Shown piece after piece: positions 18,370 to 45,321 of a stretch of 64,000 nt of DNA. Source of the DNA: Spirochaetia bacterium (GTDB lineage: Bacteria > Spirochaetota > Spirochaetia > DSM-2461); contig OY764216.1 of the NCBI GenBank assembly GCA_963668315.1, positions 4,992,001 through 5,056,000 on the forward strand. The letters run 5' to 3'. The position numbers were made by a program, and so were the translations under genes. The notes under the pieces were generated by a model. It was not told where the DNA came from. It did not search any database and was given only the letters and a program-made list of their open reading frames with translations. Each line of letters starts with the position of its first letter. Within the stretch, counting starts at the first letter, position 1.

Positions 18370-18443
18370 GCCCCGGTAGCTCAGTAGGATAGAGCAACTG
18401 CCTCCTAAGCAGTAGGTCATGCGTTCGAATCGCGTTCGGGGTA
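18370..18443 (+). tRNA. tRNA-Arg(CCT)
   Basis: Cloverleaf: GCCCCGG/TCGGGGT acceptor, ACTGC-CTCCTAA-GCAGT anticodon arm, TTCGAAT T-loop. No encoded CCA. Confidence 0.95.
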
Positions 18444-18465
18444 AAGCTCAAAGTAGCAAAAAAAT

Positions 18466-18539
18466 GGAGGCGTAGCGAAGCTGGTTATCGCGCCGGCCTG
18501 TCAAGCCGGAGATCGCGGGTTCGATCCCCGTCGCTTCCG
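18466..18539 (+). tRNA. tRNA-Asp(GTC)
   Basis: GGAGGCG/CGCTTCC acceptor, CCGGC-CTGTCAA-GCCGG anticodon arm, TTCGATC T-loop. Confidence 0.95.
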
Positions 18540-18542
18540 CAC

Positions 18543-18730: not shown

Positions 18731-19531
18731 TCATAAAGGACTCCTTATCCGGCTTAATCGGCTCTCTGCCATATGCAGGTAAACCATAGTCGAGCTAACC
18801 GACGAATGCCCCAGCATCTTCTTTATCGTCTTTACATCAGTCCCATTCTCCAGAAGATGGGTGGCAAAAGAGTGGCGTAAGGTATGACAAGTCGCTTTCC
18901 CTTCCAATCTCGATTTAAGGCAGGCCTTTTCAAATACTATCTGCAGCGTTCTAATGCTGTACTTCCTACCGTTTATCGACTTGAACAAATATTCTCGGGG
19001 CGATCTGTCGCCCATAAGATAAATAAGATCCTCCTTTAACGAGCGGGATATCAGCGTCACGCGGTCTTTCCTCCCCTTCCCCCTCCTCACGGTTAGAGTG
19101 AAACTTGCAAGATCCACGTCACGCACCCGTAAATCGACGACTTCGCTAACCCTGAGTCCGGACCCATATAGCATGGCAATCATCGTCCTATGCCTCAAAT
19201 TTTGCACAGAGGATAGGATAATCAGAATCTCTTCCCTCGAGAGAACGCGGGGCAGTTCTTTATTTCTTCTGGGTCTGTCAAGAACATAGGGACAATCCCT
19301 GTGAATAACCAACCTGTAAAAAGTTTTAATGCAGGCATAACATACCTTCACCGTAGCCGGCTTATCCTCATAAAGTTTCAGAAATCGGAAAATTTGCTCC
19401 CCGGGCTCATAATTATGTCTTCCCGCGAAAGACTCGAATTTATGGAAATAAAACAGATAAGCTCTAATCGTCTTAGCACTGTAATTGCGGATTTTCATCT
19501 CCGCCTCAAAGCGTTCCCCGTATTTAGTCAT
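18731..19531 (-). CDS. Integron-associated tyrosine recombinase (short, lacks the IntI-specific insertion)
   Basis: N-terminal RNYSAKTIRAY SAM-like domain. Catalytic R (GSGLRVSE), K (GKGRKDR), HxxR (HTLRH), H (LGHSS), Y (TMVY). Divergent from and adjacent to the cassette array. Confidence 0.9.
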   Translation of the reverse strand: MTKYGERFEAEMKIRNYSAKTIRAYLFYFHKFESFAGRHNYEPGEQIFRFLKLYEDKPATVKVCYACIKTFYRLVIHRDCPYVLDRPRRNKELPRVLSREEILIILSSVQNLRHRTMIAMLYGSGLRVSEVVDLRVRDVDLASFTLTVRRGKGRKDRVTLISRSLKEDLIYLMGDRSPREYLFKSINGRKYSIRTLQIVFEKACLKSRLEGKATCHTLRHSFATHLLENGTDVKTIKKMLGHSSVSSTMVYLHMAESRLSRIRSPL

Positions 19532-19580
19532 ATAAACTCCTGTTTTATTAAGCGCAGTTTTTTTGCTATTTCATGCAAAA

Positions 19581-19641
19581 TAACTGCGAACAGGAATATA
19601 ATATTGAAGGATTAATGAAATTCGCATAAGATACGTTAGAT
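19581..19641 (+). other. Putative attI-like primary recombination site (core GTTAGAT at 19635-19641)
   Basis: First GTTRRRY upstream of cassette 1. It is complementary to GCATCTAAC (20045-20053) at that cassette's end. Confidence 0.65.
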
Positions 19642-19662: not shown

Positions 19663-20052
19663 ATGAGAAAAATAGACATTATACAAGAACTTAAAAATTC
19701 CAATTTAGACCTATCGAAGGTATGGACTTTATGTGGAACAGCAATGGTTTTACATGAATTGCGGGAAACAACATCTGACATTGATTTAGGGTGTTCATCT
19801 CAATATTTCAATGAACTTCTTAAAAATAACTTTCCTGTTAAAACCTGGGAGAATGGCGACCGTTCGATACATTACACTGGAAATATTGAGATATTTGAAG
19901 AATGGAATATAAACGAGAAAAATTATTTTGATGGCATTGCAACTTCATCTGTAAATGATCTAATAGAACAAAAAGAATCTTTAAACAGAGAAAAAGATAA
20001 AAAAGATCTAGAAGTTCTTTATGCTAAACGTCTCCAAAAAAGCAGCATCTAA
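19663..20052 (+). CDS. Cassette 1: small nucleotidyltransferase-fold-like hypothetical protein
   Basis: GTAMVLHELRETTSDIDL resembles the NTase G-x-A...DxD motif. The stop TAA lies inside the inverse core ATCTAAC. Confidence 0.6.
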   Translation: MRKIDIIQELKNSNLDLSKVWTLCGTAMVLHELRETTSDIDLGCSSQYFNELLKNNFPVKTWENGDRSIHYTGNIEIFEEWNINEKNYFDGIATSSVNDLIEQKESLNREKDKKDLEVLYAKRLQKSSI

Positions 20053-20137
20053 CAGACAATATATGCTCCGCTTCGCTGCGGTCTTCGACAAATCTATCAC
20101 TGCGTGATAGACTTCATATATCGTCGGAACGTTATAC
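20047..20137 (+). repeat. attC-like site 1 (short type)
   Basis: ATCTAAC...GCTTCGC...ACTTCATATATCGTCGGAACGTTATAC. Confidence 0.85.
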
Positions 20138-21094: not shown

Positions 21095-21117
21095 ACACCG
21101 TTCAAAAAAGAAACTGT

Positions 21118-21262
21118 GTATAACAGAGAATATACGGCTCCGCTTCGCTCCGGCCCAAATTGTTTCTTTGACAAATCTCAAAAAAAGTAGTTATACTTTT
21201 TCCGAGATTTATCAACCCCACAAGGGGGCGAAACAACTTCGTATATTCTCGAAACGTTATAG
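21118..21262 (+). repeat. attC-like site 2 (promoter-containing type)
   Basis: GTATAAC-AGAGAATATACG...CGTATATTCTC-GAAAC-GTTATAG, with internal TTGACA-18-TATACT. Confidence 0.88.
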
Positions 21263-21291
21263 GAAATTTACAATATGCGTATAAGGAAAAC

Positions 21292-21606
21292 ATGGTGGAA
21301 TTAACCTCAGAAGAATTCGACAATACATTTACATCCAATTTCAATGAAGTTACTGAAACGGCAGAAAATTTTAATGGCAAAGATTTTGATCAATATGTTA
21401 AGTCGAATTTAATTGATGAACTTGGTGTTATGCAAATTGAATATATCTATGATACTAAAGATGGAAATTGGAGACATGTCATATTCAAAACACAACTGAA
21501 AAACATTAATTATGTGGTTGTCATAGATATAAATAAGAAAACTATTCTCGGGCACCATGTTTTAGATTTAAACGAAAAATATGGATTAAACGCTTTGGGA
21601 TTGTAA
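21292..21606 (+). CDS. Cassette 3: hypothetical protein
   Basis: ORF with AAGGA RBS that fills the cassette. Confidence 0.7.
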   Translation: MVELTSEEFDNTFTSNFNEVTETAENFNGKDFDQYVKSNLIDELGVMQIEYIYDTKDGNWRHVIFKTQLKNINYVVVIDINKKTILGHHVLDLNEKYGLNALGL

Positions 21607-21611
21607 ACTTC

Positions 21612-21757
21612 CTATAACAGCAAATGATGCGGTTACGGCTTTGCCTTCTCCCAAATTGCCTTTGACAAATACAGAAAAAAGTATGTTATACTTTTCCCTG
21701 TATTTATCAACCCCTTCGGGGTACCAGGCAACTTCGCATATTTGCGAAACGTTATGT
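21612..21757 (+). repeat. attC-like site 3
   Basis: CTATAACAGCAAATGATGCGG...ACTTCGCATATTTGCGAAACGTTATGT. Confidence 0.88.
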
Positions 21758-21817
21758 TCAATGCCCATTTTTAAAAGCTTGTTGTAGCCTCGCCCTTCCA
21801 TGGGCTCGGAGAAGATT

Positions 21818-23320
21818 ATGAAGAAACAAATATTTTCATATATAAATCTACTTAAAGAGTATATGATCCAGTGCGAAGGCAAAATAATAATTTCCCCTTA
21901 TCATTCAGATGTAAAAAAAATAAGATCAGTCGTAAAAAATGAAAGTGCTTTATTTAATAATGTTGTGTTTCGATGTTCAGATAGCGTTGAAATAAAAGAG
22001 CAAAATGAAAAAGAGACATTATTGTTTTCAATCATTTCCGAAGCACTACACAAACCCGATGATTATTATGAAAAATACAAACCAGAATTATTCCGAATAA
22101 AAAACAATCTGCAAGAAGTTTTATCAAAGGTTTTTCAAGAATATAAAAAGAATAGATCTTTCTGTAAAATAATAGCTGATTCTATTGGGTACAAGACATA
22201 CTCAATTCCAGAATCCATAGATTCATTTTTAGGCAAGGAACATTCATATATCTTCTTTTATATTTTTTTAAACCATATTTTTATTGATTTTTTGAAAGCG
22301 AATAATTGTTATGATATAGATACATTTTTAGAGATAGAATCCAATAAATGGTATGATTTTCATAGAAAAAAGTTTGAAGGGATAAAAAATCGGAAAAACT
22401 ACGAATATGAAATTTGTTATTATCTCAATTCGCCTATATGCACTTCTGAAAATGGAACAAAATTAGGAATCTTTAAATACTATGATAAGAATATCTCGTT
22501 ACAAACATCTTACGTTAATGATGATGAATTGGGGACATTAACATATGATTTTTCAGAAAAAGATTACTTAAAATATGTTAACACTAAAATTTCATATAAT
22601 GCTAAAATCCCCATAGAAGCTGAAGTCTCAACTTTTGAGGACTTATATAAAGAAGCAGAAGATATCGGTAAGAGGTTATTGACGAATCTACGATTAGCTT
22701 ATGAATTTGAAATTGGTGTATTAACTTTAAAAATCAAATCAAGGGATCAGTTTACTCCAGATATCAGATCTGGGAACAATATTGAATTTAGTAACAAATA
22801 TACAGCATATTTACCGAAAAGGTTTATTTTTTTTACAGATACACCAATAGATATCCAAGAGACTGACTGCTTAAGACTTTTTAAAAGATTGAACAAAGTT
22901 CAGGAAATAGATGATTGGTTAAAAATTGCCTGTAAAAGGTTTAATCTTTCGATAGATAACTATTTTGTTTATAACCATGACAGATTATTGGATATTGCAA
23001 TCGCATTTGAAGCAATTTTTTTAAATGACAATGAATCGACGAAAGAATTAACATATAGGTTAAGTGTCCGTGCAGCTAAGTTTTTAGGTAAAAATAAGAA
23101 TGAAAAAGAGAATATATTTAAAATTGTAAATGATTTATACAAGTATCGATCAAAGATAGCGCATGGTGTAGATATAAACTCTATGAAACCAAAAGATAGA
23201 GATAGAATTAATGAAATAAATATAGAAGCCCCGATTTTACTTAAACTTTCAATTGTTAAGTCGATTTTTATGAAAAGCAATGATTGGAGAAATTATTGGC
23301 AAACGTTAACTTTAAATTAA
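21818..23320 (+). CDS. Cassette 4: HEPN-domain protein (ApeA-like), candidate defence RNase
   Basis: C-terminal LLDIAIAFEAIF...ELTYRLSVRAAKFLG...LYKYRSKIAHG with an RxxxxH motif. Confidence 0.72.
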   Translation: MKKQIFSYINLLKEYMIQCEGKIIISPYHSDVKKIRSVVKNESALFNNVVFRCSDSVEIKEQNEKETLLFSIISEALHKPDDYYEKYKPELFRIKNNLQEVLSKVFQEYKKNRSFCKIIADSIGYKTYSIPESIDSFLGKEHSYIFFYIFLNHIFIDFLKANNCYDIDTFLEIESNKWYDFHRKKFEGIKNRKNYEYEICYYLNSPICTSENGTKLGIFKYYDKNISLQTSYVNDDELGTLTYDFSEKDYLKYVNTKISYNAKIPIEAEVSTFEDLYKEAEDIGKRLLTNLRLAYEFEIGVLTLKIKSRDQFTPDIRSGNNIEFSNKYTAYLPKRFIFFTDTPIDIQETDCLRLFKRLNKVQEIDDWLKIACKRFNLSIDNYFVYNHDRLLDIAIAFEAIFLNDNESTKELTYRLSVRAAKFLGKNKNEKENIFKIVNDLYKYRSKIAHGVDINSMKPKDRDRINEINIEAPILLKLSIVKSIFMKSNDWRNYWQTLTLN

Positions 23321-23397
23321 ACCTGCTACATAATGCCGTCCATGGCATTATGTAGAATTTATACGCACACATTTAAAAATGGGCACTAAACATAACA

Positions 23398-24967
23398 CAT
23401 ATTAGGACCCCATCTGTCAAGGACAAATTTTCCCCTGTTCTATCTAGGTAGAACATTTTTATATGAAGATGAACCGGACCGATAAAGAATGAAGCATTCT
23501 GTCTTGTTTCTCAAACGGGCTGCAGAAAAGATCTGCTCCAAACACACATAGACACTTTAACTCCGTAATTTTACGGCATTATAGAAATACATCCGTACCC
23601 AATCCTGTCATAATCAATGAAAACGGATTTCTTGGGGAATCCAGTTATTTTCGTGATCAGGCTGGTGCAGAATTCTTCCAGACTTTCTCAATCCTGGTTA
23701 TTTAAAACAGGTCGAAGCAGATATCCAATCAGCGAACGCATAATTCTTCTTTCAAATGATAAATACGAATGATAGTCATGCTATAAAAAGCCGTATTTAC
23801 GGTCATTATCTTTTTATGATTATAGTTATACGTTAGGCTTATCTGCTCCACCTGTTATGAACAAAAACGGTCTATATCAAAGGCTTTCCTCCTTTTGAGA
23901 ACATAATATACAGCTCTGGCTAATTTATGGGCCATGATGGAATAGGCTTTCCCGTTTCCAAACTTTTGCACTAATCTCTGATGATATGATTTTATCTCCG
24001 GGCAATAGCGGATGAACATGACGGCCGCTTCGGAGAAAGCCCACTTGAGATTAGCATTGCCGATTTTGGTATTTTTGGATGCATACTGCTTTCCTCCCGA
24101 TTCCCTCTGACACTTGACTACGCGGCAATAGGAAACGAAGTTCTGTACACGAGGAAAACGGTTAATGTCTTCAATTTCATAGAGAATAGTCAGGGCAAGC
24201 ACATCACCTATCCCGGGAATAGATTTCAACAAAGAAAATGCTAGAGGATCAGAATGATTTGCTGCCTTCAAAACACGAGATTCTATCTTCCGGATCTGTT
24301 CGGTTAACGCATCAACGACGGCTATGTCGACTTCCATATTCATTTTGACCGCCGGATCATCAAACCGTTCGAGTAATTCAGTCTTCGAAGCAATCGTAAG
24401 AGAATTGATCCCCTTCTTTATGGTATCGAAATTGTATTGGGTATTGGTATTCTGGATATGAGAAAGAAGATCTGATCTCCTGCGAACAAGATATATTCGC
24501 CGTCTGAAGAGGTCTCGAATAGCTCTGGTTTTCTGTGGGTAGACATAGGCTTGAGGGATCAGGCCACCTTTTAGCAATGCCGCTATCTTCTGGGAATCGA
24601 TTTTATCGTTCTTGGTTTTTCCTCCGCTTATAGCCTTCATGTAGAGGGCGTGGCCAAGGACAAAGGGAATACTGTTTAGCTGGCAGTAATCGGCAATCCA
24701 GTACCATGTGAAAATACACTCGACACAGATGACGATATCATTAAGAAAGGGGGCGATCGCTTGTTGAAGGTGAACCGGATCAGCGATCATGTTTTTATGA
24801 TAGACGATTTCGCCATCCTGGTTCATAATGCAGATATACATCTTTTTCGTGTGGAGATCGATTCCGCAGTAAAAGTTGTGTTGTTGGGTATAAAATTTCA
24901 TAAGGGCTCCTTTGGTTAAGGTTGTTGGAAATTTTAACATAACCACTAGGGGTCCTTATGATTATCA
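23398..24967 (-). mobile_element. IS110/IS1111-family element, copy 1 (1570 bp)
   Basis: Sub-terminal IR AGGACCCC/GGGGTCCT, CA core at both junctions, no TSD, about 460 bp of non-coding sequence downstream of the transposase. Confidence 0.92.
23855..24901 (-). CDS. IS110-family (DEDD) transposase/recombinase
   Basis: GIDLH, VECIF, KNDKIDS, SIPGIG, RESGGK. Start set to MKFYTQ, after an AAGGAG RBS. Confidence 0.93.
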   Translation of the reverse strand: MKFYTQQHNFYCGIDLHTKKMYICIMNQDGEIVYHKNMIADPVHLQQAIAPFLNDIVICVECIFTWYWIADYCQLNSIPFVLGHALYMKAISGGKTKNDKIDSQKIAALLKGGLIPQAYVYPQKTRAIRDLFRRRIYLVRRRSDLLSHIQNTNTQYNFDTIKKGINSLTIASKTELLERFDDPAVKMNMEVDIAVVDALTEQIRKIESRVLKAANHSDPLAFSLLKSIPGIGDVLALTILYEIEDINRFPRVQNFVSYCRVVKCQRESGGKQYASKNTKIGNANLKWAFSEAAVMFIRYCPEIKSYHQRLVQKFGNGKAYSIMAHKLARAVYYVLKRRKAFDIDRFCS

Positions 24968-25139
24968 GCGAATATACGCTGCGGCTTCGCCTTGGCCTTC
25001 GGCAAATAAACCCTTTGAAAATATTCTAAAAAATTATGATATAATTTCCCAGAATATTTTCAAGCCCGCAAGGGGCTGGGTTTACTTCGTATATTCGCGG
25101 AACGTTATAGGAAACATATTTTTGGAGATTATTTCGCAA

Positions 25140-25661
25140 ATGAAGAATATACTTGAAATGATAAAGAAAGATGCACGATTGTCATTCTGGAGCGAAGAAA
25201 AATTGGAACTGGAAGGCTTTGAGAGGATTTCAGCGACATTGACAACAATTCATAGATTCATTCTCAGCCCTCTCATTGCATATGTCTTCATTGCAGGTAT
25301 AACCAACATGTTACTAAATGTCTCATCAGTAGAAACATACATGATTATTCTCAGTTTTGTACTTGCCATATTCGTCTTTTACTTTTATGGCTATAGGTTT
25401 CTATCTGCTAATCATGCTTTTTTCGATAGAAAAAGTCGAATTGTTCTAATTTTTCTCCCATATAAGTATAGAATTATAAGTGTAAATAAAGACAACATTT
25501 ATTCAGTCGATGGTACAACATTTAATCCTATTGATTTCGTTACAATTAGAGTTAGAGAAGGAGACAAAGTAAGAAAATATCATTTTGTCTCTTCATTTAG
25601 ATTTTTCAAAGCATACACGGAGCATCCTATTGTTAAAAATATTAGGGAATACCTTAGATAG
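25140..25661 (+). CDS. Cassette 5: hypothetical membrane protein
   Basis: Two hydrophobic segments. ATG after GGAG at 25124; the ORF-track start at 24912 is read-through across the attC. Confidence 0.7.
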   Translation: MKNILEMIKKDARLSFWSEEKLELEGFERISATLTTIHRFILSPLIAYVFIAGITNMLLNVSSVETYMIILSFVLAIFVFYFYGYRFLSANHAFFDRKSRIVLIFLPYKYRIISVNKDNIYSVDGTTFNPIDFVTIRVREGDKVRKYHFVSSFRFFKAYTEHPIVKNIREYLR

Positions 25662-25694
25662 AACCACGTGCCAAAAAATATGCATCCTATAACA

Positions 25695-27264
25695 CATATT
25701 AGGACCCCATCTGTCAAGGACAAATTTTCCCCTGTTCTATCTAGGTAGAACATTTTTATATGAAGATGAACCGGACCGATAAAGAATGAAGCATTCTGTC
25801 TTGTTTCTCAAACGGGCTGCAGAAAAGATCTGCTCCAAACACACATAGACACTTTAACTCCGTAATTTTACGGCATTATAGAAATACATCCGTACCCAAT
25901 CCTGTCATAATCAATGAAAACGGATTTCTTGGGGAATCCAGTTATTTTCGTGATCAGGCTGGTGCAGAATTCTTCCAGACTTTCTCAATCCTGGTTATTT
26001 AAAACAGGTCGAAGCAGATATCCAATCAGCGAACGCATAATTCTTCTTTCAAATGATAAATACGAATGATAGTCATGCTATAAAAAGCCGTATTTACGGT
26101 CATTATCTTTTTATGATTATAGTTATACGTTAGGCTTATCTGCTCCACCTGTTATGAACAAAAACGGTCTATATCAAAGGCTTTCCTCCTTTTGAGAACA
26201 TAATATACAGCTCTGGCTAATTTATGGGCCATGATGGAATAGGCTTTCCCGTTTCCAAACTTTTGCACTAATCTCTGATGATATGATTTTATCTCCGGGC
26301 AATAGCGGATGAACATGACGGCCGCTTCGGAGAAAGCCCACTTGAGATTAGCATTGCCGATTTTGGTATTTTTGGATGCATACTGCTTTCCTCCCGATTC
26401 CCTCTGACACTTGACTACGCGGCAATAGGAAACGAAGTTCTGTACACGAGGAAAACGGTTAATGTCTTCAATTTCATAGAGAATAGTCAGGGCAAGCACA
26501 TCACCTATCCCGGGAATAGATTTCAACAAAGAAAATGCTAGAGGATCAGAATGATTTGCTGCCTTCAAAACACGAGATTCTATCTTCCGGATCTGTTCGG
26601 TTAACGCATCAACGACGGCTATGTCGACTTCCATATTCATTTTGACCGCCGGATCATCAAACCGTTCGAGTAATTCAGTCTTCGAAGCAATCGTAAGAGA
26701 ATTGATCCCCTTCTTTATGGTATCGAAATTGTATTGGGTATTGGTATTCTGGATATGAGAAAGAAGATCTGATCTCCTGCGAACAAGATATATTCGCCGT
26801 CTGAAGAGGTCTCGAATAGCTCTGGTTTTCTGTGGGTAGACATAGGCTTGAGGGATCAGGCCACCTTTTAGCAATGCCGCTATCTTCTGGGAATCGATTT
26901 TATCGTTCTTGGTTTTTCCTCCGCTTATAGCCTTCATGTAGAGGGCGTGGCCAAGGACAAAGGGAATACTGTTTAGCTGGCAGTAATCGGCAATCCAGTA
27001 CCATGTGAAAATACACTCGACACAGATGACGATATCATTAAGAAAGGGGGCGATCGCTTGTTGAAGGTGAACCGGATCAGCGATCATGTTTTTATGATAG
27101 ACGATTTCGCCATCCTGGTTCATAATGCAGATATACATCTTTTTCGTGTGGAGATCGATTCCGCAGTAAAAGTTGTGTTGTTGGGTATAAAATTTCATAA
27201 GGGCTCCTTTGGTTAAGGTTGTTGGAAATTTTAACATAACCACTAGGGGTCCTTATGATTATCA
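25695..27264 (-). mobile_element. IS110/IS1111-family element, copy 2
   Basis: Same ends and same transposase as copy 1, offset 2297 bp. Confidence 0.92.
26152..27198 (-). CDS. IS110-family transposase
   Basis: Protein identical to copy 1. Confidence 0.93.
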   Translation of the reverse strand: MKFYTQQHNFYCGIDLHTKKMYICIMNQDGEIVYHKNMIADPVHLQQAIAPFLNDIVICVECIFTWYWIADYCQLNSIPFVLGHALYMKAISGGKTKNDKIDSQKIAALLKGGLIPQAYVYPQKTRAIRDLFRRRIYLVRRRSDLLSHIQNTNTQYNFDTIKKGINSLTIASKTELLERFDDPAVKMNMEVDIAVVDALTEQIRKIESRVLKAANHSDPLAFSLLKSIPGIGDVLALTILYEIEDINRFPRVQNFVSYCRVVKCQRESGGKQYASKNTKIGNANLKWAFSEAAVMFIRYCPEIKSYHQRLVQKFGNGKAYSIMAHKLARAVYYVLKRRKAFDIDRFCS

Positions 27265-27436
27265 GCGAATATACGCTGCGGCTTCGCCTTGGCCTTCGGC
27301 AAATAAACCCTTTGAAAATATTCTAAAAAATTATGATATAATTTCCCAGAATATTTTCAAGCCCGCAAGGGGCTGGGTTTACTTCGTATATTCGCGGAAC
27401 GTTATAGGAAACATATTTTTGGAGATTATTTCGCAA

Positions 27437-27958
27437 ATGAAGAATATACTTGAAATGATAAAGAAAGATGCACGATTGTCATTCTGGAGCGAAGAAAAAT
27501 TGGAACTGGAAGGCTTTGAGAGGATTTCAGCGACATTGACAACAATTCATAGATTCATTCTCAGCCCTCTCATTGCATATGTCTTCATTGCAGGTATAAC
27601 CAACATGTTACTAAATGTCTCATCAGTAGAAACATACATGATTATTCTCAGTTTTGTACTTGCCATATTCGTCTTTTACTTTTATGGCTATAGGTTTCTA
27701 TCTGCTAATCATGCTTTTTTCGATAGAAAAAGTCGAATTGTTCTAATTTTTCTCCCATATAAGTATAGAATTATAAGTGTAAATAAAGACAACATTTATT
27801 CAGTCGATGGTACAACATTTAATCCTATTGATTTCGTTACAATTAGAGTTAGAGAAGGAGACAAAGTAAGAAAATATCATTTTGTCTCTTCATTTAGATT
27901 TTTCAAAGCATACACGGAGCATCCTATTGTTAAAAATATTAGGGAATACCTTAGATAG
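27437..27958 (+). CDS. Cassette 6: duplicate of the cassette 5 membrane protein
   Basis: Translation identical to 25140-25661. Confidence 0.7.
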   Translation: MKNILEMIKKDARLSFWSEEKLELEGFERISATLTTIHRFILSPLIAYVFIAGITNMLLNVSSVETYMIILSFVLAIFVFYFYGYRFLSANHAFFDRKSRIVLIFLPYKYRIISVNKDNIYSVDGTTFNPIDFVTIRVREGDKVRKYHFVSSFRFFKAYTEHPIVKNIREYLR

Positions 27959-27991
27959 AACCACGTGCCAAAAAATATGCATCCTATAACA

Positions 27992-29561
27992 CATATTAGG
28001 ACCCCATCTGTCAAGGACAAATTTTCCCCTGTTCTATCTAGGTAGAACATTTTTATATGAAGATGAACCGGACCGATAAAGAATGAAGCATTCTGTCTTG
28101 TTTCTCAAACGGGCTGCAGAAAAGATCTGCTCCAAACACACATAGACACTTTAACTCCGTAATTTTACGGCATTATAGAAATACATCCGTACCCAATCCT
28201 GTCATAATCAATGAAAACGGATTTCTTGGGGAATCCAGTTATTTTCGTGATCAGGCTGGTGCAGAATTCTTCCAGACTTTCTCAATCCTGGTTATTTAAA
28301 ACAGGTCGAAGCAGATATCCAATCAGCGAACGCATAATTCTTCTTTCAAATGATAAATACGAATGATAGTCATGCTATAAAAAGCCGTATTTACGGTCAT
28401 TATCTTTTTATGATTATAGTTATACGTTAGGCTTATCTGCTCCACCTGTTATGAACAAAAACGGTCTATATCAAAGGCTTTCCTCCTTTTGAGAACATAA
28501 TATACAGCTCTGGCTAATTTATGGGCCATGATGGAATAGGCTTTCCCGTTTCCAAACTTTTGCACTAATCTCTGATGATATGATTTTATCTCCGGGCAAT
28601 AGCGGATGAACATGACGGCCGCTTCGGAGAAAGCCCACTTGAGATTAGCATTGCCGATTTTGGTATTTTTGGATGCATACTGCTTTCCTCCCGATTCCCT
28701 CTGACACTTGACTACGCGGCAATAGGAAACGAAGTTCTGTACACGAGGAAAACGGTTAATGTCTTCAATTTCATAGAGAATAGTCAGGGCAAGCACATCA
28801 CCTATCCCGGGAATAGATTTCAACAAAGAAAATGCTAGAGGATCAGAATGATTTGCTGCCTTCAAAACACGAGATTCTATCTTCCGGATCTGTTCGGTTA
28901 ACGCATCAACGACGGCTATGTCGACTTCCATATTCATTTTGACCGCCGGATCATCAAACCGTTCGAGTAATTCAGTCTTCGAAGCAATCGTAAGAGAATT
29001 GATCCCCTTCTTTATGGTATCGAAATTGTATTGGGTATTGGTATTCTGGATATGAGAAAGAAGATCTGATCTCCTGCGAACAAGATATATTCGCCGTCTG
29101 AAGAGGTCTCGAATAGCTCTGGTTTTCTGTGGGTAGACATAGGCTTGAGGGATCAGGCCACCTTTTAGCAATGCCGCTATCTTCTGGGAATCGATTTTAT
29201 CGTTCTTGGTTTTTCCTCCGCTTATAGCCTTCATGTAGAGGGCGTGGCCAAGGACAAAGGGAATACTGTTTAGCTGGCAGTAATCGGCAATCCAGTACCA
29301 TGTGAAAATACACTCGACACAGATGACGATATCATTAAGAAAGGGGGCGATCGCTTGTTGAAGGTGAACCGGATCAGCGATCATGTTTTTATGATAGACG
29401 ATTTCGCCATCCTGGTTCATAATGCAGATATACATCTTTTTCGTGTGGAGATCGATTCCGCAGTAAAAGTTGTGTTGTTGGGTATAAAATTTCATAAGGG
29501 CTCCTTTGGTTAAGGTTGTTGGAAATTTTAACATAACCACTAGGGGTCCTTATGATTATCA
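27992..29561 (-). mobile_element. IS110/IS1111-family element, copy 3
   Basis: Same ends and same transposase as copy 1. Confidence 0.92.
28449..29495 (-). CDS. IS110-family transposase
   Basis: Protein identical to copy 1. Confidence 0.93.
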   Translation of the reverse strand: MKFYTQQHNFYCGIDLHTKKMYICIMNQDGEIVYHKNMIADPVHLQQAIAPFLNDIVICVECIFTWYWIADYCQLNSIPFVLGHALYMKAISGGKTKNDKIDSQKIAALLKGGLIPQAYVYPQKTRAIRDLFRRRIYLVRRRSDLLSHIQNTNTQYNFDTIKKGINSLTIASKTELLERFDDPAVKMNMEVDIAVVDALTEQIRKIESRVLKAANHSDPLAFSLLKSIPGIGDVLALTILYEIEDINRFPRVQNFVSYCRVVKCQRESGGKQYASKNTKIGNANLKWAFSEAAVMFIRYCPEIKSYHQRLVQKFGNGKAYSIMAHKLARAVYYVLKRRKAFDIDRFCS

Positions 29562-29853
29562 GCGTCTATATGCTCCGCTTCGCTCCGGGCTTCGCCAAAT
29601 TTAAATCAAAAAGAATTACAGCGAAAATAACAAATAGTACGCTATAATAGATTCTATACAACAATAAAATGCTACGGTCATGGCTATCGTCACGGTTTCT
29701 GCTTGCGCACAAACCGCGCCAACTTCACGCCATGCCGCAGATTTTGGCGTTGTATAGAAATCGGATATGCAAGCACGTGTTTTTGATTTAAACTTCATAT
29801 AAACGCGAAACGTTAGGTGTAATGTTCTTTTTATACAGCGTAAAGGATAAGAA

Positions 29854-30303
29854 ATGAAAACAAAATTTTCACATGTAAATATTATTAGTAGTGATTGGAA
29901 AAAATTAGCAGATTTTTATATTAGAGTTTTTGATTGTAAACCAAAACTTCCGGAGAGAAATCTTTCAGGTGATTGGGTTGATAAATTAACTGATTTATCA
30001 AATGCTAGAATAAAAGGGATGCACTTAATCCTCCCGGGTTATGACACCGATGGTCCCACTTTAGAGATCTTTGAATACAATGCAAATATAAGTAATAATG
30101 GTAAAAATATAAATCTGGAAGGGTTTGGTCATATTGCTTTTGCGGTAGAGGATGTTGAGGAAAAGTTAAATCTTTTATTGGATAACGGTGGATCTTCAGT
30201 CGGTCAATTGATTGACGCTGAAATAGATGGAGTCGGCAAAATCTCAGTTGTTTATGCAAAAGATCCAGAAGGCAATATTTTAGAAATTCAAAAGTGGGAA
30301 TAA
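29854..30303 (+). CDS. Cassette 7: VOC/glyoxalase-family protein
   Basis: HVNIIS...FY, LEIFEY, GFGHIAFAVEDV, YAKDPEGNILEI. Confidence 0.88.
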   Translation: MKTKFSHVNIISSDWKKLADFYIRVFDCKPKLPERNLSGDWVDKLTDLSNARIKGMHLILPGYDTDGPTLEIFEYNANISNNGKNINLEGFGHIAFAVEDVEEKLNLLLDNGGSSVGQLIDAEIDGVGKISVVYAKDPEGNILEIQKWE

Positions 30304-30315
30304 AAAGAACACTAC

Positions 30316-30459
30316 ACCTAACAGCAAATGATGCGGTTCCGCTCCGCTTCACCCAAATTGCCTTTGACAAATACCCGTTCAATTATGATATAATTGAACA
30401 GCCATTTATCAACCCCTATTGGGGTACAGGCAACTTCGCATATTTGCGGAACGTTACCC
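30316..30459 (+). repeat. attC-like site 7
   Basis: ACCTAACAGCAAATGATGCGG...ACTTCGCATATTTGCGGAACGTTACCC. Confidence 0.88.
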
Positions 30460-30523
30460 ATTATTATTTGGCTTATAATATTTTTTTTCATCATTCGCCA
30501 TCCTTGGCTCATTAGGGGAAATT

Positions 30524-30994
30524 TTGGATTTATCTGAATATAGTGTTAAAGAATTACTGATACTAATCTCTGATATCATGAAAGAGCTGATCTCAAGAAG
30601 AATTATTAGAACATTTAATAATCCTGTTGGTGATTATACGGAGTGGCTTGTTTCATCACGGTTAAATTATACGCTTGAAAATAATTCAAAAGCTGGTTTC
30701 GATGCAACTTCCAGTACCGGACAAAGGGTTCAGATAAAGGGAAGAAGAGTCACTCCATGGAATAAATCTCACCAGTTAAGTGCAATCAGAAATCTTGATT
30801 CAAAGGATTTTGATACACTAGCAGCTGTTATTTTTGATGAAGATTACAACGTAATTGAAGCGAAAATGATTCCTCAGGAAATCATTCATGAGTATGCAAA
30901 TTACCGAGAGCATGTTAATGCACATATTTTAATCTTACAAGGTGATATTCTCAACGACAATCGAGTAAAAGATATCAAAAAGGATTTGATATAG
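30524..30994 (+). CDS. Cassette 8: small PD-(D/E)XK-like nuclease-fold protein
   Basis: NNPVGDYTEWLV...GFDAT...RVQIKGRR gives an E...D...QxK pattern. Confidence 0.6.
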   Translation: MDLSEYSVKELLILISDIMKELISRRIIRTFNNPVGDYTEWLVSSRLNYTLENNSKAGFDATSSTGQRVQIKGRRVTPWNKSHQLSAIRNLDSKDFDTLAAVIFDEDYNVIEAKMIPQEIIHEYANYREHVNAHILILQGDILNDNRVKDIKKDLI

Positions 30995-31057
30995 ATCGTG
31001 TTTAAAAGTACATCCTTGTACTTTTAAAGAACCTATACGCTGTCGCCAAATAACAAC

Positions 31058-31201
31058 GGGTAACAGCGAATTATGCGGTTTCGCTTCGCTCCACCAAAAT
31101 TGCCTTTGACAAATACCCGTTCAATTATGATATAATTGAACAGCCATTTATCAACCCCGGTGGGGTACCAGGCAACTTCGCATATTCGCGAAACGTTATA
31201 T
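31058..31201 (+). repeat. attC-like site 8
   Basis: GGGTAACAGCGAATTATGCGG...ACTTCGCATATTCGCGAAACGTTATAT. Confidence 0.88.
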
Positions 31202-31215
31202 TCAATAGCCAATTC

Positions 31216-32031
31216 ATGAAAATCTTTTTTAAATTTGGAGAAAATCCTTTGAAAGATTATGGGGAATCAAAACAATTACAGTTTCTCAACAAAACTTACA
31301 GTTTTATAAAAGACTGTATTGGAGAATCTCCAGCAGATGTTTTTATTCTAGACAATAGAAAGACATCTGAAAAATTGTTCCTTAAAATCAGCTCTAAAGA
31401 TTTTTCCTTCACTACATATTCTGTTGAACGGGAAATGCTTGTCTTGAAATGGCTAGCAGACAAAACGGATGTACCAACTGTTGTAGACTATTTTGAAAAT
31501 GAGGATTATCAATTTCTTCTGATGAAAAGCATTATTGGATTGCCAATTCTGGACACCGCACCTTCTGGAAATACTATCGTTGATTCTTTTGTCAATGGAA
31601 TAAAGACCTTTCAATCCATCAATGTTGATGATTGCCCTTTTGATAGTTCTATGAAAAAACGATTAAAGGAACTGAAATACCTGGTTAATAAAAATTTGGC
31701 AGCATTTGATGACTTTTATGAAAGTGAGTTGCCATTTGATTCCCCTGAGGATTTAATCAGTTATTTAGAAAATAATATGCATCCAGAGGAAATTGTTTTT
31801 TCCCATGGAGATTTTCAAGAAAGTAATATTTTCATCTCTAAGAAATTAGGTTTCATAGATTGGGGGCGTGGGGGAAAGGCTGATAAATGGTGTGATATTG
31901 CTCATGCTTATCAAAACATTAAAGAGCAATTGGAAGATCAGAAATATATAAACCGATTCTTTGAAAAACTAGAATTAGAACCTGATTGGGACAAGATAAA
32001 TTTCCATTTATGGCTCGATGAATTGTTCTGA
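31216..32031 (+). CDS. Cassette 9: aminoglycoside 3'-phosphotransferase, APH(3')-like
   Basis: GESPADVF, LFLKIS, YSVERE, CPFD, FSHGDFQESNIF, GFIDWGRGGKADKWCDIA and C-terminal LDELF, as in APH(3')-III-type enzymes. The true start may be TTG at 31249. Confidence 0.85.
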   Translation: MKIFFKFGENPLKDYGESKQLQFLNKTYSFIKDCIGESPADVFILDNRKTSEKLFLKISSKDFSFTTYSVEREMLVLKWLADKTDVPTVVDYFENEDYQFLLMKSIIGLPILDTAPSGNTIVDSFVNGIKTFQSINVDDCPFDSSMKKRLKELKYLVNKNLAAFDDFYESELPFDSPEDLISYLENNMHPEEIVFSHGDFQESNIFISKKLGFIDWGRGGKADKWCDIAHAYQNIKEQLEDQKYINRFFEKLELEPDWDKINFHLWLDELF

Positions 32032-32055
32032 CACCGTTCATGAATTGGCTACTGA

Positions 32056-32201
32056 ATATAACAGCCAATATACGGCTCCGCTTCGCTCCGGCCCAAATTA
32101 ACCCTTTGACCAATTCTGAAAAAAGTATGATATACTTTTCCCGAAATTGCTCAACCCCACAAGGGGCCGGGTTTACTTCGTATATTGGCGAAACGTTAGC
32201 A
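32056..32201 (+). repeat. attC-like site 9
   Basis: ATATAACAGCCAATATACG...CGTATATTGGCGAAACGTTAGCA. Confidence 0.88.
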
Positions 32202-32269
32202 AAATTTTTGTTTTCGGCTTCGTTATCGGTTTTCTGACCATCCGTGGTCAGAAAAAATGAAGGAGTAAC

Positions 32270-33055
32270 ATGGAAATTCAACATCTTGAGAAATACTATA
32301 ATAATATTGATGAGGATGGAAGGCTCCTTTCAAAATATGGTTCAGTCGAATTTTTAACCACTATGAAATATATTCAAAAATATCTTACGCAGGATATGAA
32401 GATTTTGGATATTGGGGCTGGAACAGGTATTTACAGCCTGGCTTTAGCTGATAAGTGTCATCATGTTGATGCCGTAGAGCTGATACAGAAAAATATTGAC
32501 ATATTCAAATTAAAAATAGAAAAGCATAAGAATATTACAGTGCAAAAAGGAAACGCTCTAGATTTGAGTTTTCTGGAAGATAATTTCTATGATATTACGT
32601 TGTTATTTGGCCCTATGTACCATCTTTATACAGAAGAGCATAAACTCAAAGCTCTTTCAGAAGCAATAAGGGTAACAAAACCAAAAGGCTATATTCTAAT
32701 AGCATACTGTATGTCGGATGCAACTATTTTAAATTATGGGTTTGTAAAGAAAAATATTGTGGATCTTATTGAAAAAGAGATGTTAGATACGGAGGAATTT
32801 AAGCCCCGGTCAGAACCGATAGATCTATTTGAACTTCATAGAAAGGAAGATATAGACCGCCTAAATAATAAATTTAATGTAAAAAGATTAAACTATGTAG
32901 CTACAGATGGTTTTACAAATCATTTTAGAGAAACCGTGAATAATATGAGTGACAAAGAATTTGAGATTTATATGAAATACCATTTTTTCACGTGTGAACG
33001 AGAAGATATGCAAGGAATAACTCATCATAGTCTGGATATATTACAAAAACAATAA
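32270..33055 (+). CDS. Cassette 10: class I SAM-dependent methyltransferase
   Basis: ILDIGAGTG, GNALDL, GPMYHL. Confidence 0.88.
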   Translation: MEIQHLEKYYNNIDEDGRLLSKYGSVEFLTTMKYIQKYLTQDMKILDIGAGTGIYSLALADKCHHVDAVELIQKNIDIFKLKIEKHKNITVQKGNALDLSFLEDNFYDITLLFGPMYHLYTEEHKLKALSEAIRVTKPKGYILIAYCMSDATILNYGFVKKNIVDLIEKEMLDTEEFKPRSEPIDLFELHRKEDIDRLNNKFNVKRLNYVATDGFTNHFRETVNNMSDKEFEIYMKYHFFTCEREDMQGITHHSLDILQKQ

Positions 33056-33125
33056 AAGAATGAGGAAATACTATACATCCCTGTATAGTATTATCTTCTA
33101 TCAGAAAATCCGAAAACAAAACTTC

Positions 33126-33326
33126 AGCTAACAGCGTTTATATGCTCCGCTACGCTCCGGGCTTCGCCAAATTTAAATCAAAAAGAATTATTTTAAAAAA
33201 AGAACAACAATTACGCTATAATAGATTCTATACAACAAGGATTTGCTACGGATTTGCCTATGTCACATTTCTTGTTTTCACAAGAAATTCGCCAATTACG
33301 GCAAACCGCAGAAATCGTCGTTCTAA
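33126..33326 (+). repeat. attC-like site 10 (long type, ends at the inner GTT)
   Basis: Left arm matches site 6; the sequence diverges right after the inner CGTT at 33319-33322. Confidence 0.75.
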
Positions 33327-33346
33327 AGACAAAGAAGGGGGGGGGA

Positions 33347-33871
33347 ATGAGACTAGTTATACGATTAGCCACAAAAGAAGATTCATCAAGTATTCTTAGA
33401 GTAATTAATCAATCATATAATCCATATAAAAACTTAATACCAGCTAATTGTGGATTTGTAACTTCTATAGAAGAAATAATCAAAATTATGAAAGATGAGA
33501 GCTCCTCATGTTGGGTAGCTGAAAATAATGATAGTGTTATTGGTGTTGCTACTGGAATTACAATTGCTCCAAGAGCATATCATCTTAAGCTTTTATTTAT
33601 CGCAGAACATGCGCAACGCAAAGGTATAGCTTCGAACTTATTATCAACTTATGAAAATTCAGGCAAAAAAAAAGGGTATAAATTATTAACTACCAATTAT
33701 CAGAAATGGGCTCCATGGTCAAGAAACTTCTATCTTAAGCAAGGATATAAGGAATATATTGAGGGGGATGAATTAGATTTTCCAGATTTGCATGAAACGA
33801 TTTCTTTTTATAGAAGGATTGGTAAGTTAAATAATGATCGAAAATGTTTTATATGGAAAAAGACATGCTAA
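33347..33871 (+). CDS. Cassette 11: GNAT-family acetyltransferase
   Basis: IRLAT, AQRKGIASNLL acetyl-CoA motif A, FYLKQGY. Confidence 0.85.
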   Translation: MRLVIRLATKEDSSSILRVINQSYNPYKNLIPANCGFVTSIEEIIKIMKDESSSCWVAENNDSVIGVATGITIAPRAYHLKLLFIAEHAQRKGIASNLLSTYENSGKKKGYKLLTTNYQKWAPWSRNFYLKQGYKEYIEGDELDFPDLHETISFYRRIGKLNNDRKCFIWKKTC

Positions 33872-33944
33872 GGTTACGGGTAAGGAGCACTAAATGCCAT
33901 CCGTGGCATTTACTGGACATACAGACAATAGGAATGGGCACTAA

Positions 33945-34090
33945 ACATAACAGCAAATGATGCGGTTATGGCTTTGCCTTCACCCAAATTGCCTTTGACA
34001 AATCCAAGAAAAAGCACGTATACTTTTCCTTAGATTTATCAACCCCTAAAGGGGTACCAGGCAACTTCGCATATTTGCAAAACGTTAAAT
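33945..34090 (+). repeat. attC-like site 11
   Basis: ACATAACAGCAAATGATGCGG...ACTTCGCATATTTGCAAAACGTTAAAT. Confidence 0.88.
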
Positions 34091-34093
34091 GAA

Positions 34094-34585
34094 ATGTTTT
34101 GGGAGAAGATTTTTTTACAAGGAATTATTTTGAAACAACCAAGAATTGTAACTGTTTGCGGAGCTTTAGTTATTAACAATAATCAAGTTCTCATAATTCA
34201 GGAAGCTAATAAAAAGGCTTTTGGGAAATTTAATATTCCTGGAGGTCATGTTGATTTAGATGAAGATCTGAAGGAAACGGCTATCCGAGAAGTTAAAGAA
34301 GAGACGGGAATTCCCATCATTGTTGAAGATTTTCTTGGAGTCTATACTCATCAAGCACAAGATAAATCAACAATCATCAAAATAATATTTGTTGGAAAAC
34401 CCTGTGATTTTGAAATCAATTTTCCTAAGGATGAGATACTAAACGCTACTTGGATGAACATTGATGATTTTCTGAAAATCGAAGCTGATAAGTTACGTTC
34501 ACAAGATTTATTTTCAATAATTACAGATTATAGAAACAAGAATCAATGTAATTTATCATTAGTGAAAGATATTGTTAGAGTATAA
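34094..34585 (+). CDS. Cassette 12: NUDIX hydrolase
   Basis: Nudix box GGHVDLDEDLKETAIREVKEETG. The true start may be TTG near 34130. Confidence 0.9.
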   Translation: MFWEKIFLQGIILKQPRIVTVCGALVINNNQVLIIQEANKKAFGKFNIPGGHVDLDEDLKETAIREVKEETGIPIIVEDFLGVYTHQAQDKSTIIKIIFVGKPCDFEINFPKDEILNATWMNIDDFLKIEADKLRSQDLFSIITDYRNKNQCNLSLVKDIVRV

Positions 34586-34617
34586 TTTTATTCTGACCCA
34601 TTCTCCCAAAACACTTC

Positions 34618-34761
34618 ATCTAACAGCAAATGATGCGGTTACGCTTCGCTTCACCCAAATTGCCTTTGACAAATCCAGAAAAAAGTATGATATACTTTTC
34701 CCTGTATTTATCAACCCCTGCGGGGTACAAGGCAACTTCATATATTCGCGAAACGTTAAAT
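34618..34761 (+). repeat. attC-like site 12
   Basis: ATCTAACAGCAAATGATGCGG...ACTTCATATATTCGCGAAACGTTAAAT. Confidence 0.88.
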
Positions 34762-35700: not shown

Positions 35701-35893
35701 ATTTAACAGCGAATGATATGCTCCACTTCGTTTCGGGCTTCGCCAAATTTCTATCAAAAAGAATTAGTTCCGAAATAGAGAATTTGTATGCTACAATGAA
35801 CAACAATATAACCAAGATTTGCTACTGTCACATTTCTTGTTTTCACAAGAAATCCGCCAGCTTCACGGTCTGCAGCAGAAATCGACGTTATCT
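35701..35893 (+). repeat. attC-like site 13 (long type, ends at the inner GTT)
   Basis: ATTTAACAGCGAATGATATG...AATATAAC...GAAATCGACGTTATCT. Confidence 0.75.
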
Positions 35894-35923
35894 TGACTAA
35901 ATATTTTTGAGGAGAAAATAAAA

Positions 35924-36382: not shown

Positions 36383-36501
36383 TTATAATAGCAAGTGAAT
36401 ATTTGATCCGAAATGTTCAATCCTTCAACTGTAGTCGTTCGGCATCCGTGCCTCACTACTTGGTAAATCCCGACGCATACTACTTATAACAGACGATATA
36501 T
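36383..36501 (+). repeat. Degenerate attC-like site 14
   Basis: TTATAATAGC...AGACGATATAT with the core mutated GTT to GAT. The downstream GATATATGTAATGATTTTTTG still complements the end of cassette 15. Confidence 0.55.
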
Positions 36502-36536
36502 GTAATGATTTTTTGAGATTTATACAGGAGGGACAT

Positions 36537-36933: not shown

Positions 36934-38503
36934 CATATTAGGACCCCATCTGTCAAGGACAAATTTTCCCCTGTTCTATCTAGGTAGAACATTTTTATAT
37001 GAAGATGAACCGGACCGATAAAGAATGAAGCATTCTGTCTTGTTTCTCAAACGGGCTGCAGAAAAGATCTGCTCCAAACACACATAGACACTTTAACTCC
37101 GTAATTTTACGGCATTATAGAAATACATCCGTACCCAATCCTGTCATAATCAATGAAAACGGATTTCTTGGGGAATCCAGTTATTTTCGTGATCAGGCTG
37201 GTGCAGAATTCTTCCAGACTTTCTCAATCCTGGTTATTTAAAACAGGTCGAAGCAGATATCCAATCAGCGAACGCATAATTCTTCTTTCAAATGATAAAT
37301 ACGAATGATAGTCATGCTATAAAAAGCCGTATTTACGGTCATTATCTTTTTATGATTATAGTTATACGTTAGGCTTATCTGCTCCACCTGTTATGAACAA
37401 AAACGGTCTATATCAAAGGCTTTCCTCCTTTTGAGAACATAATATACAGCTCTGGCTAATTTATGGGCCATGATGGAATAGGCTTTCCCGTTTCCAAACT
37501 TTTGCACTAATCTCTGATGATATGATTTTATCTCCGGGCAATAGCGGATGAACATGACGGCCGCTTCGGAGAAAGCCCACTTGAGATTAGCATTGCCGAT
37601 TTTGGTATTTTTGGATGCATACTGCTTTCCTCCCGATTCCCTCTGACACTTGACTACGCGGCAATAGGAAACGAAGTTCTGTACACGAGGAAAACGGTTA
37701 ATGTCTTCAATTTCATAGAGAATAGTCAGGGCAAGCACATCACCTATCCCGGGAATAGATTTCAACAAAGAAAATGCTAGAGGATCAGAATGATTTGCTG
37801 CCTTCAAAACACGAGATTCTATCTTCCGGATCTGTTCGGTTAACGCATCAACGACGGCTATGTCGACTTCCATATTCATTTTGACCGCCGGATCATCAAA
37901 CCGTTCGAGTAATTCAGTCTTCGAAGCAATCGTAAGAGAATTGATCCCCTTCTTTATGGTATCGAAATTGTATTGGGTATTGGTATTCTGGATATGAGAA
38001 AGAAGATCTGATCTCCTGCGAACAAGATATATTCGCCGTCTGAAGAGGTCTCGAATAGCTCTGGTTTTCTGTGGGTAGACATAGGCTTGAGGGATCAGGC
38101 CACCTTTTAGCAATGCCGCTATCTTCTGGGAATCGATTTTATCGTTCTTGGTTTTTCCTCCGCTTATAGCCTTCATGTAGAGGGCGTGGCCAAGGACAAA
38201 GGGAATACTGTTTAGCTGGCAGTAATCGGCAATCCAGTACCATGTGAAAATACACTCGACACAGATGACGATATCATTAAGAAAGGGGGCGATCGCTTGT
38301 TGAAGGTGAACCGGATCAGCGATCATGTTTTTATGATAGACGATTTCGCCATCCTGGTTCATAATGCAGATATACATCTTTTTCGTGTGGAGATCGATTC
38401 CGCAGTAAAAGTTGTGTTGTTGGGTATAAAATTTCATAAGGGCTCCTTTGGTTAAGGTTGTTGGAAATTTTAACATAACCACTAGGGGTCCTTATGATTA
38501 TCA
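36934..38503 (-). mobile_element. IS110/IS1111-family element, copy 4
   Basis: Same ends and same transposase as copy 1, with independent flanks. Confidence 0.92.
37391..38437 (-). CDS. IS110-family transposase
   Basis: Protein identical to copy 1. Confidence 0.93.
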   Translation of the reverse strand: MKFYTQQHNFYCGIDLHTKKMYICIMNQDGEIVYHKNMIADPVHLQQAIAPFLNDIVICVECIFTWYWIADYCQLNSIPFVLGHALYMKAISGGKTKNDKIDSQKIAALLKGGLIPQAYVYPQKTRAIRDLFRRRIYLVRRRSDLLSHIQNTNTQYNFDTIKKGINSLTIASKTELLERFDDPAVKMNMEVDIAVVDALTEQIRKIESRVLKAANHSDPLAFSLLKSIPGIGDVLALTILYEIEDINRFPRVQNFVSYCRVVKCQRESGGKQYASKNTKIGNANLKWAFSEAAVMFIRYCPEIKSYHQRLVQKFGNGKAYSIMAHKLARAVYYVLKRRKAFDIDRFCS

Positions 38504-38651
38504 GCGAATATGCGGTTCCGCTGCGCTTCACCAAAATTGCCCGTTGGGCAACTTCACCTATTCGCGAAACGTTATCGGCAATAAGCGCCAAAGCATTTAT
38601 TATTCAAAGGAAAATCCGGCGTTCTGCCGGATAAAATGGAGGAAATTAAAA

Positions 38652-45142: not shown

Positions 45143-45260
45143 CAGTGGTTCCGCGGTCTGCAGATTCGCCTTCTATGCGTCATTACTTCACCCAGATGCC
45201 CTTTGACAAATCCCCGCATTAAGATGATATAATTAAACAATATTTCATCAATCTATCGGG
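45137..45260 (+). repeat. Relic attC-like site retaining its promoter
   Basis: ACATAACAG...CTTCACCCAGATGCCCTTTGACAAATCC...TGATATAATT...TCATCAA, homologous to sites 7 and 8. The right arm has decayed. Confidence 0.6.
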
Positions 45261-45321
45261 ATTGCTGACTTTACGGAAGCATAAAACAACATTTGTAGAT
45301 CATGTATTAGAGGAGAATCCA

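Follow-up and report, generated by a model that had tools for sequence, protein, structure and literature searches.

Gene cassette arrays raise the question of how genes that lie far from the recombinase platform come to be expressed. In the standard integron model, there is one platform promoter, and distal cassettes stay silent until they are reshuffled. The question is considered here for an array in the genome of a Spirochaetia bacterium (labelled G000; a single contig of 5.62 Mb with 51% GC), within a window of 64,000 nucleotides (nt) of contig OY764216.1, whose numbering is used below unless the host genome is named. On the + strand, the array begins with a GTTAGAT core (19635) and extends as far as about 38577. 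The original prediction held that sigma70-like promoters are built into its attC sites and point into the next cassette. Nine attC sites and one decayed relic were found to carry TTGA(C/A)(A/C)-18/19-TATA(A/C)T on the cassette strand. The feature is real and the comparative case for promoter function is good; in the medium-length sites, the -35 and extended -10 of the terminal hairpin probably act as a moderate, constitutive housekeeping (sigma70-type) promoter for the next cassette.

The modules listed by the original prediction for sites 2–5, 7–9, 11 and 12 and for the relic were all recovered in place, and at these ten sites 10–12 of the 12 hexamer positions agree with TTGACA/TATAAT. An 18-bp spacer is present in site 2 (21118..21262; TTGACA 21168-21173, TATACT 21192-21197) and site 11 (33945..34090; TTGACA 33995, TATACT 34019-34024). 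The spacer is 19 bp in site 3 (21612..21757; TTGACA 21662, TATACT 21687-21692), site 4 (24960..25110; TTGAAA 25015, TATAAT 25040-25045), its tandem copy site 5 (27257..27407; TTGAAA 27312, TATAAT 27337-27342), site 7 (30316..30459; TTGACA 30364, TATAAT 30389-30394), site 8 (31058..31201; TTGACA 31106, TATAAT 31131-31136), site 9 (32056..32201; TTGACC 32106, TATACT 32131-32136) and site 12 (34618..34761; TTGACA 34666, TATACT 34691-34696). The same spacing is found in the relic (45137..45290, + strand), which has lost its right arm and keeps a perfect TTGACA-19-TGa-TATAAT at 45203-45233, before a Rid-family gene. An extended -10 had been claimed for every 19-bp version, and TG at -15/-14 is indeed present in all eight of these and in neither of the two 18-bp copies.

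The long sites were also expected to keep TATAAT or TGcTACAAT, and this was confirmed for the nested sites 6 (29554..29818, 265 nt; unpaired TATAAT at 29643), 10 (33126..33326; TATAAT 33217-33222) and 13 (35701..35893; TG-c-TACAAT 35792-35797). They have a -10 only, no good -35 being found with any of these three boxes. The two short sites had been proposed as controls without the module. This holds for site 15 (38496..38577, 82 nt, with an IS110-family element at R''), which has no promoter match. Site 1 (20047..20137, 91 nt) carries a weak TCGACA-17-TGa-TAGACT at 20085-20113 and was ruled out as a negative control; short sites similar to it recur elsewhere. Site 14, read directly, consists of a left arm only (R''/L'', 36484..36502) and runs straight into the leader of the next gene. 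All of these sites lie on the + strand.

Between 19.6 and 46 kb, the strict pattern has ten matches, all on the + strand and none on the - strand. Within the 19.6-38.6 kb array, nine matches were observed against a mean of 0.155 and a maximum of 2 in 200 second-order Markov simulations. The nine modules are not nine independent events, because the copies descend from one repeat. On these counts, chance is excluded as the source of the strict matches, promoter function being a separate matter. A second attC cluster of the host genome gave four more strict matches, again on the cassette strand, and in a sample of 401 genomes from the phylum, the exact 19-bp attC type was found in 2, the host included. 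A generic scan for promoters with 16-18-bp spacers across the whole AT-rich region revealed no excess (69 matches vs 74.4 in shuffles), and the promoter signal is positional.

Medium attC sites are 144-155 nt long. Between their outer R/L arms, one side hairpin stands on the left, a long hairpin in the centre and a CCCC/GGGG hairpin on the right; in the window, the site ends fit RYYYAAC ... GTTRRRY. The -35 is located at the base of the 5' arm of the central hairpin. Its terminal loop of 3 nt consists of G-14, N-13 and T-12, and the remainder of the -10 opens the 3' arm. In 32 of 33 sites, the more stable fold is that of the bottom strand, by a mean of -4.5 kcal/mol. In the alignment, an extra base in L'', where integron attC sites have an extrahelical base, is present in sites 3, 7, 8, 11 and 12 and absent from sites 1, 2, 4, 9 and 15. 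As a separate observation, the side loops (e.g. 21140-21150) read CGCTTCGC or CCTTCGG on the top strand, giving GAA-type loops on the bottom strand; such loops form stable DNA mini-hairpins.

For the conservation analysis, 41 distinct cores were chosen from all loci by their right side branch and hairpin geometry. The 38 with a 3-nt loop were analysed, sites 2 and 11 and the mis-anchored site 4 being set aside. In the unpaired loop, G-14 is found in 36/38 cores and T-12 in all 38, around a variable position -13 (22 A, 11 T, 3 G and 2 C). A-11 and A-9 are present in every core and T-7 in 37, and the counts for the upstream extension are T-17 36/38, R-16 37/38, T-15 38/38 and G-14 36/38. Positions -17 to -14 thus read TRTG, the extended -10 form described in PMC12641261 (this and the other papers cited are drawn on in excerpt). 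Two pairs at the tip covary, -10 (T/C) with -16 (A/G) and -8 (A/C) with -18 (T/G), and the mid-spacer pairs covary freely. Within the -10 box, it is only the weak positions that covary. In these alignments, the conservation profile of the core is that of an extended -10, and selection for a sigma70-type promoter accounts for it better than a constraint on the hairpin only.

The comparison was extended to 201 distinct sites from metagenomes and from arrays beside homologous integrases; these were found without the use of site interiors, and none was dropped from the strand scoring. In the genome labelled G033, two types of 206-218 nt carry the box in a predicted unpaired loop, as TRTGnTAnnnT in 11/11 sites of one type and as TGTGnTAnnnT in 10/10 of the other, with seven different middle triplets. 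Genomes G178 and G227 have TT(G/A/T)Cnn-17-TAnnnT, with the box again in a predicted unpaired loop, in 15/15 sites. A fourth group has TTGTCA-16-TAnnAT in six of its ten sites, the other four being without the loop. Among 113 long sites, the promoter score was higher for the top strand in 88, tied in 9 and higher for the bottom strand in 16; shuffled sequences were beaten (p<=0.05) by the top strand in 47 and by the bottom strand in 7. For 88 short sites, the top strand won 42 times, tied 13 times and lost 33 times, with 16 top strands vs 3 bottom strands beating the shuffles. Across these loop types, the promoter feature is recurrent, not universal. A further comparison in favour of promoter function comes from the relic: against the nearest intact core, 0/14 promoter positions and 20/49 others have changed (Fisher p=0.003, calculated post hoc on one case).

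Several observations weigh against promoter function. One is the spacer, which is 19 bp in 38 of 41 cores, 18 bp in three and 17 bp in none, with 19 bp in 8/10 of the window sites. In 2246 crudely defined upstream regions of the host, TTGACA with at least 5/6 of a -10 occurs 6, 43, 13 and 8 times at 16, 17, 18 and 19 bp, the 19-bp class including the attC sites, and no TG enrichment was found in 200 host promoters with a 17-bp spacer. With the host optimum at 17 +/- 1 bp, the 19-bp copies fall outside it. The -35 raises a second difficulty. TG(A/T)CA is found at the central stem base even in attC types without a -10 at a usable distance, so that the -35 is partly inherited structure. Its conservation is partly circular, because its pairing partner stood in the pattern by which cores were selected. 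The C of TTGACA makes a C.A mismatch, a G.T wobble on the bottom strand, and could be explained by the known attC trait of such wobbles (PMC5027507). Mean column conservation is 0.88 at promoter positions vs 0.85 at their pairing partners, and the sequences are related to each other. On the bottom strand, the palindrome also yields a mirror promoter, which is weaker (TTGATA-16-TATCAT or -19-CATAAT). In the wider set, the weights of the promoter score were fixed after these sites had been seen. Counted by cluster, the strand bias falls to the top strand in 20/30, to the bottom in 9 and to neither in 1, the clusters being related. No convincing top-strand box was found in the 134-139-nt type of G192, the 152-nt type of L026, L074/L080, L136/L141 and some singletons.

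Some of these points would follow if the hexamers were a by-product of hairpin structure and descent, with the motifs kept for folding or for the binding of the integrase or host factors, and with an AT-rich palindrome producing look-alikes on both strands. The mirror promoter, the more stable bottom-strand fold and the fixed 19-bp spacer can all be accommodated in this way, as can the stem positions -21 to -19 and -6/-5, which are outside the promoter and equally conserved. Such an origin is nevertheless unlikely, as the unpaired G-14 and T-12 are fixed around a variable -13, other types retain TAnnnT, with middle bases that vary, in their unpaired loops, and the relic still has its hexamers after the loss of its right arm. 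As for the spacer, expression from E. coli consensus promoters was reported to remain high from 15 to 19 bp, with 17 bp being best (PMC8695583, section 11), and 15-19 bp is given as the general sigma70-type range (PMC12641261). Damped activity of the 19-bp attC promoters is plausible on this basis.

A 19-bp spacer could also belong to a regulated promoter of the MerR kind, silent until an activator or a change in supercoiling realigns the boxes. MerR-type promoters have spacers of about 19 bp, with an operator palindrome between the -35 and the -10. The near-consensus hexamers and the prevalence of 19 bp, with 17 bp never seen, would suit such regulation. The sole dyad, however, is centred at -13 (0.93 paired; centres from -32 to -14.5 reach at most 0.45), so no operator palindrome lies between the boxes. 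The sequence of the dyad is not fixed but covaries, and spacer length was described as having a minor effect on supercoiling sensitivity (PMC8695583); regulation of this kind is highly unlikely. Very little credence is given to the idea that RTG at -16 to -14 is the start codon of a short leader open reading frame that helps ribosomes across the attC hairpin. In class 1 integrons, translation is indeed helped by short reading frames in attC (review PMC8876359), and the frame here is open past the crossover in 19/31 sites, the ATG or GTG being present by the definition of TRTG. In the other 12 of the 31, it stops before the crossover, and in 7 of these it ends after two codons because TATAAT supplies TAA. 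The distance to the crossover falls in all three frames, and neither T-7 nor the 17-bp types would be explained.

A housekeeping promoter in the attC site remains the preferred explanation. In duplex form, the site reads TTGACA-19-TRTGnTAYAMT, with 57-60 nt between the end of the -10 and the G|TT crossover. RNA polymerase would start about 7 nt past the -10 and would transcribe the side hairpin, L'/R', a short leader and then the gene. Promoter strength would be damped, here by the combination of consensus hexamers with a long spacer and in the related loop types, where spacers are 16-17 bp, by weaker hexamers. By the geometry of recombination, the promoter would move with its own cassette, drive whatever lies downstream and face its own gene in an excised circle, and a cassette newly inserted at attI would give its promoter to the cassette that it displaces. 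Folding for recombination would place the -35 and the -10 on opposite arms, so that a folded attC could not be a promoter.

The array offers some further support. The leaders in the 10 cassettes listed are only 21-75 nt long, so that there is little room for promoters of the cassettes' own. The candidate for the platform promoter (Pc), TGCAAA-17-TATAAT at 19574..19602 (+ strand), is weak and consists of a consensus match only; together with the short leaders, it fits attC-borne promoters. The claim that each attC would drive the following cassette is partly supported, by the conservation, the distance from -10 to crossover and the leaders; the 19-bp spacer, off the host optimum, and the promoter-like match in site 1 detract from it. 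If the claim is true, attC-borne promoters would remove the expression gradient, and expression would be set by the site of the upstream neighbour. Excised circles and clusters without an integrase could express their genes. Environmental resistance-type cassettes, such as the APH(3')-family gene behind site 8, would be expressible anywhere in an array. The internal transcription of large arrays would also have a simple and testable explanation.

No paper on a conserved promoter inside attC was found in the literature searched, most subscription papers lying outside its scope; PMC7691350 and bioRxiv 10.1101/2025.06.18.660453 were also among the sources on prior knowledge. Sedentary chromosomal integrons were reviewed as Pc-driven, with mostly promoterless cassettes (PMC8876359). 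They share with this array the divergent tyrosine recombinase gene, attI, tandem cassettes, attC sites that fold on the bottom strand, the G|TT crossover and IS110 elements at attC. The internal promoters given for them in the review excerpts lie in 5' untranslated regions of cassettes, gene-less cassettes, introns and insertion sequences, and none of them is conserved as part of the terminal structure of attC. The closest case is that of Vibrio DAT722, where the next cassette is served by a promoter that bridges an attC, and transcript is about 40-fold more abundant on its downstream side (Michael and Labbate 2010, PMC2945992). It is described as one junction-specific case, unlike the present array, in which the whole promoter lies within the site, in most medium-length sites and in several loop types. 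Gene-less cassettes that bear promoters likewise alter the expression of downstream cassettes from within an array (Blanco 2024, PMC11014356; Tansirichaiya 2019, PMC6557892), but there a dedicated cassette carries the promoter as its cargo. Such cassettes were described in oral Treponema (PMC6557892), and for cassette F2, scattered start sites inside its attC were considered possibly spurious by the authors (PMC11014356). Group IIC-attC introns and IS1111-attC elements resemble the present case in their attC-associated outward promoters or attC-targeted insertion, IS110-family copies being found at R'' here; in them, the promoter is supplied by the invading element. Compared by description only, the attC-like motif OTH-22-1 is a non-canonical form found in several phyla (Brewer 2021, PMC8632094), and the long attC sites of Treponema (115-132 bp, PMC3607928) are a spirochaetal parallel; no promoter is mentioned for either in the excerpts.

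The recombinase sets the system apart in another way. The gene (18731..19531, - strand, divergent from the array) encodes a short IntI-like tyrosine recombinase of 266 amino acids with profile matches to PF00589 and PF13495, and the catalytic motifs SGLR, KGRKD, HTLRH and LGH..Y were read directly. Its best-aligned blocks, at both ends of the protein, are those with VchIntI4 (2A3V). The IntI-specific insertion, present in the recombinases of sedentary chromosomal integrons, was not found, 28 residues separating two aligned blocks vs 71 in 2A3V, and the TIGR02249 score is 183.5 bits, under the cut-off of 265. This insertion is reported as not fully conserved in an integron-like subgroup, yet essential for integron function (PMC8138268). 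Hence, the system is integron-like by anatomy but fails one defining feature of IntI. Close integrase homologues (E<=1e-55) occur in 23/401 class genomes, and homologues of similar length adjoin attC arrays in G033, G178 and G227. Titled records with this attC family come mainly from Spirochaetia, with some from other phyla. The likely attI crossover core is GTTAGAT at 19635..19641 (+ strand), the start of cassette 1, and is complementary to the end of that cassette over 22 nt.

A second insertion point may be present in the nested long sites. In site 6, an outer attC holds the unpaired TATAAT, followed by an inner hairpin (TATACAAC...GTTGTATA) that has complementary AAC/GTT ends of its own, the inner GTT being at 29749. 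TAYAAT is present in all eight nested left halves that were found. Six of these continue beyond the inner GTT, and those of sites 10 and 13 break exactly there, at G|TT (33320 and 35887). At two other loci (L012 and L130), the reciprocal right half is joined to foreign sequence at the inner GTT. The two window cassettes with unmatched ends are those behind sites 10 and 13. Since the inner GTT is where both the truncated and the reciprocal forms break, and these two cassettes mismatch, it is likely a second crossover point behind a -10. Nested long sites with an inner AAC/GTT hairpin behind TAYAAT were also seen at L007, L012, L024, L101 and L130.

The start and end of a cassette are complementary over a median of 20 nt, and 12/14 window cassettes are cognate in this sense. 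When cassettes were pre-selected for a 7-nt core that matches, 59 of 61 reached a complementarity of at least 15 nt, vs 4.7% of controls. The cassette ends are thus imperfect inverted repeats of about 20 nt, longer than the 7-nt core and often with an A/G mismatch near position 11. Hairpins with a CNTCCNTG core lie about 47 nt before R'' in 40/198 flanks and mostly 30-45 nt after R' in 19/195, and six control motifs, reverse orientation included, gave zero in the same flanks. In the window, they are located at 20446, 21795, 23337, 30499, 31011, 32239, 33076, 33898, 34794, 35654 and 36443, always in one orientation and most at a fixed distance from att sites; several have terminator-like flanking A and T tracts. 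Their bottom strand reads CANGGANG, matching the CsrA consensus given in PMC8668096, and the host genome encodes two CsrA homologues. Ten of the 12 such hairpins with a stem of at least 6 in the host genome are at attC arrays. The TD-2 RNA motif (RF03162), described in the excerpted text only from Treponema denticola (PMC1950547), gave no match for these hairpins at E<=1 in the host genome or in the window at 18-46 kb.

Taken as a whole, this anatomy could tentatively be read as a distinct integron lineage with a short integrase that lacks the IntI-specific insertion. Its attC would be a self-contained expression module that switches between promoter duplex and recombinogenic hairpin, in some sites a second place of insertion would be nested immediately after the -10, as a portable Pc-attI, and inverted cassette ends of about 20 nt and CsrA-like hairpins at fixed distances would complete the set. 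If so, such arrays would be expressed libraries and not silent memory.

Four identical IS110-family copies are present, one at R'' of each of sites 4, 5, 6 and 15 (23392-29557 and 36928-38502); the one at site 4 occupies 23397..24966 on the - strand. At its array-distal end, an outward TTAACA-17-TATGAT (+ strand, at 24934) faces in the array direction. The unit of insertion sequence, attC and cassette, 2297 bp long, is repeated in tandem. Four contig runs from one study support the assembly of 19400-38900 and give the repeated cassette a depth of about twice single copy; no clear circle joint was found in these DNA contigs, which drop rare forms. A search for RNA runs with this sequence gave none.

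Glyoxalase, APH(3')-family, methyltransferase, GNAT and NUDIX genes are among those carried by the array. The APH(3')-family phosphotransferase cassette (31216-32031; NF033068, 208 bits, cut-off 205) immediately follows the consensus site 8. In cassette 13, the methyltransferase gene (34819-35648) is apparently broken near its 5' end, with a stop at about 34891 and a longer frame from 35016. Further clusters or single sites of the same attC family, with the same module, were found away from the integrase at host genome positions 3436000-3446000 (-), 4546800-4549000 (+) and 2186529 (-). Beside the recombinase platform, tRNA-Arg(CCT) and tRNA-Asp(GTC) lie at 18370..18540 (+ strand), behind an ordinary TTGACA-17-TATTAT promoter at 18314; they were the only Rfam matches at E<=1 between 18 and 46 kb. 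Between the array and the relic lie a small antitoxin/toxin-like gene pair with no Pfam match (43584-44046) and a surface protein with five Listeria-Bacteroides repeats (41700-42700).

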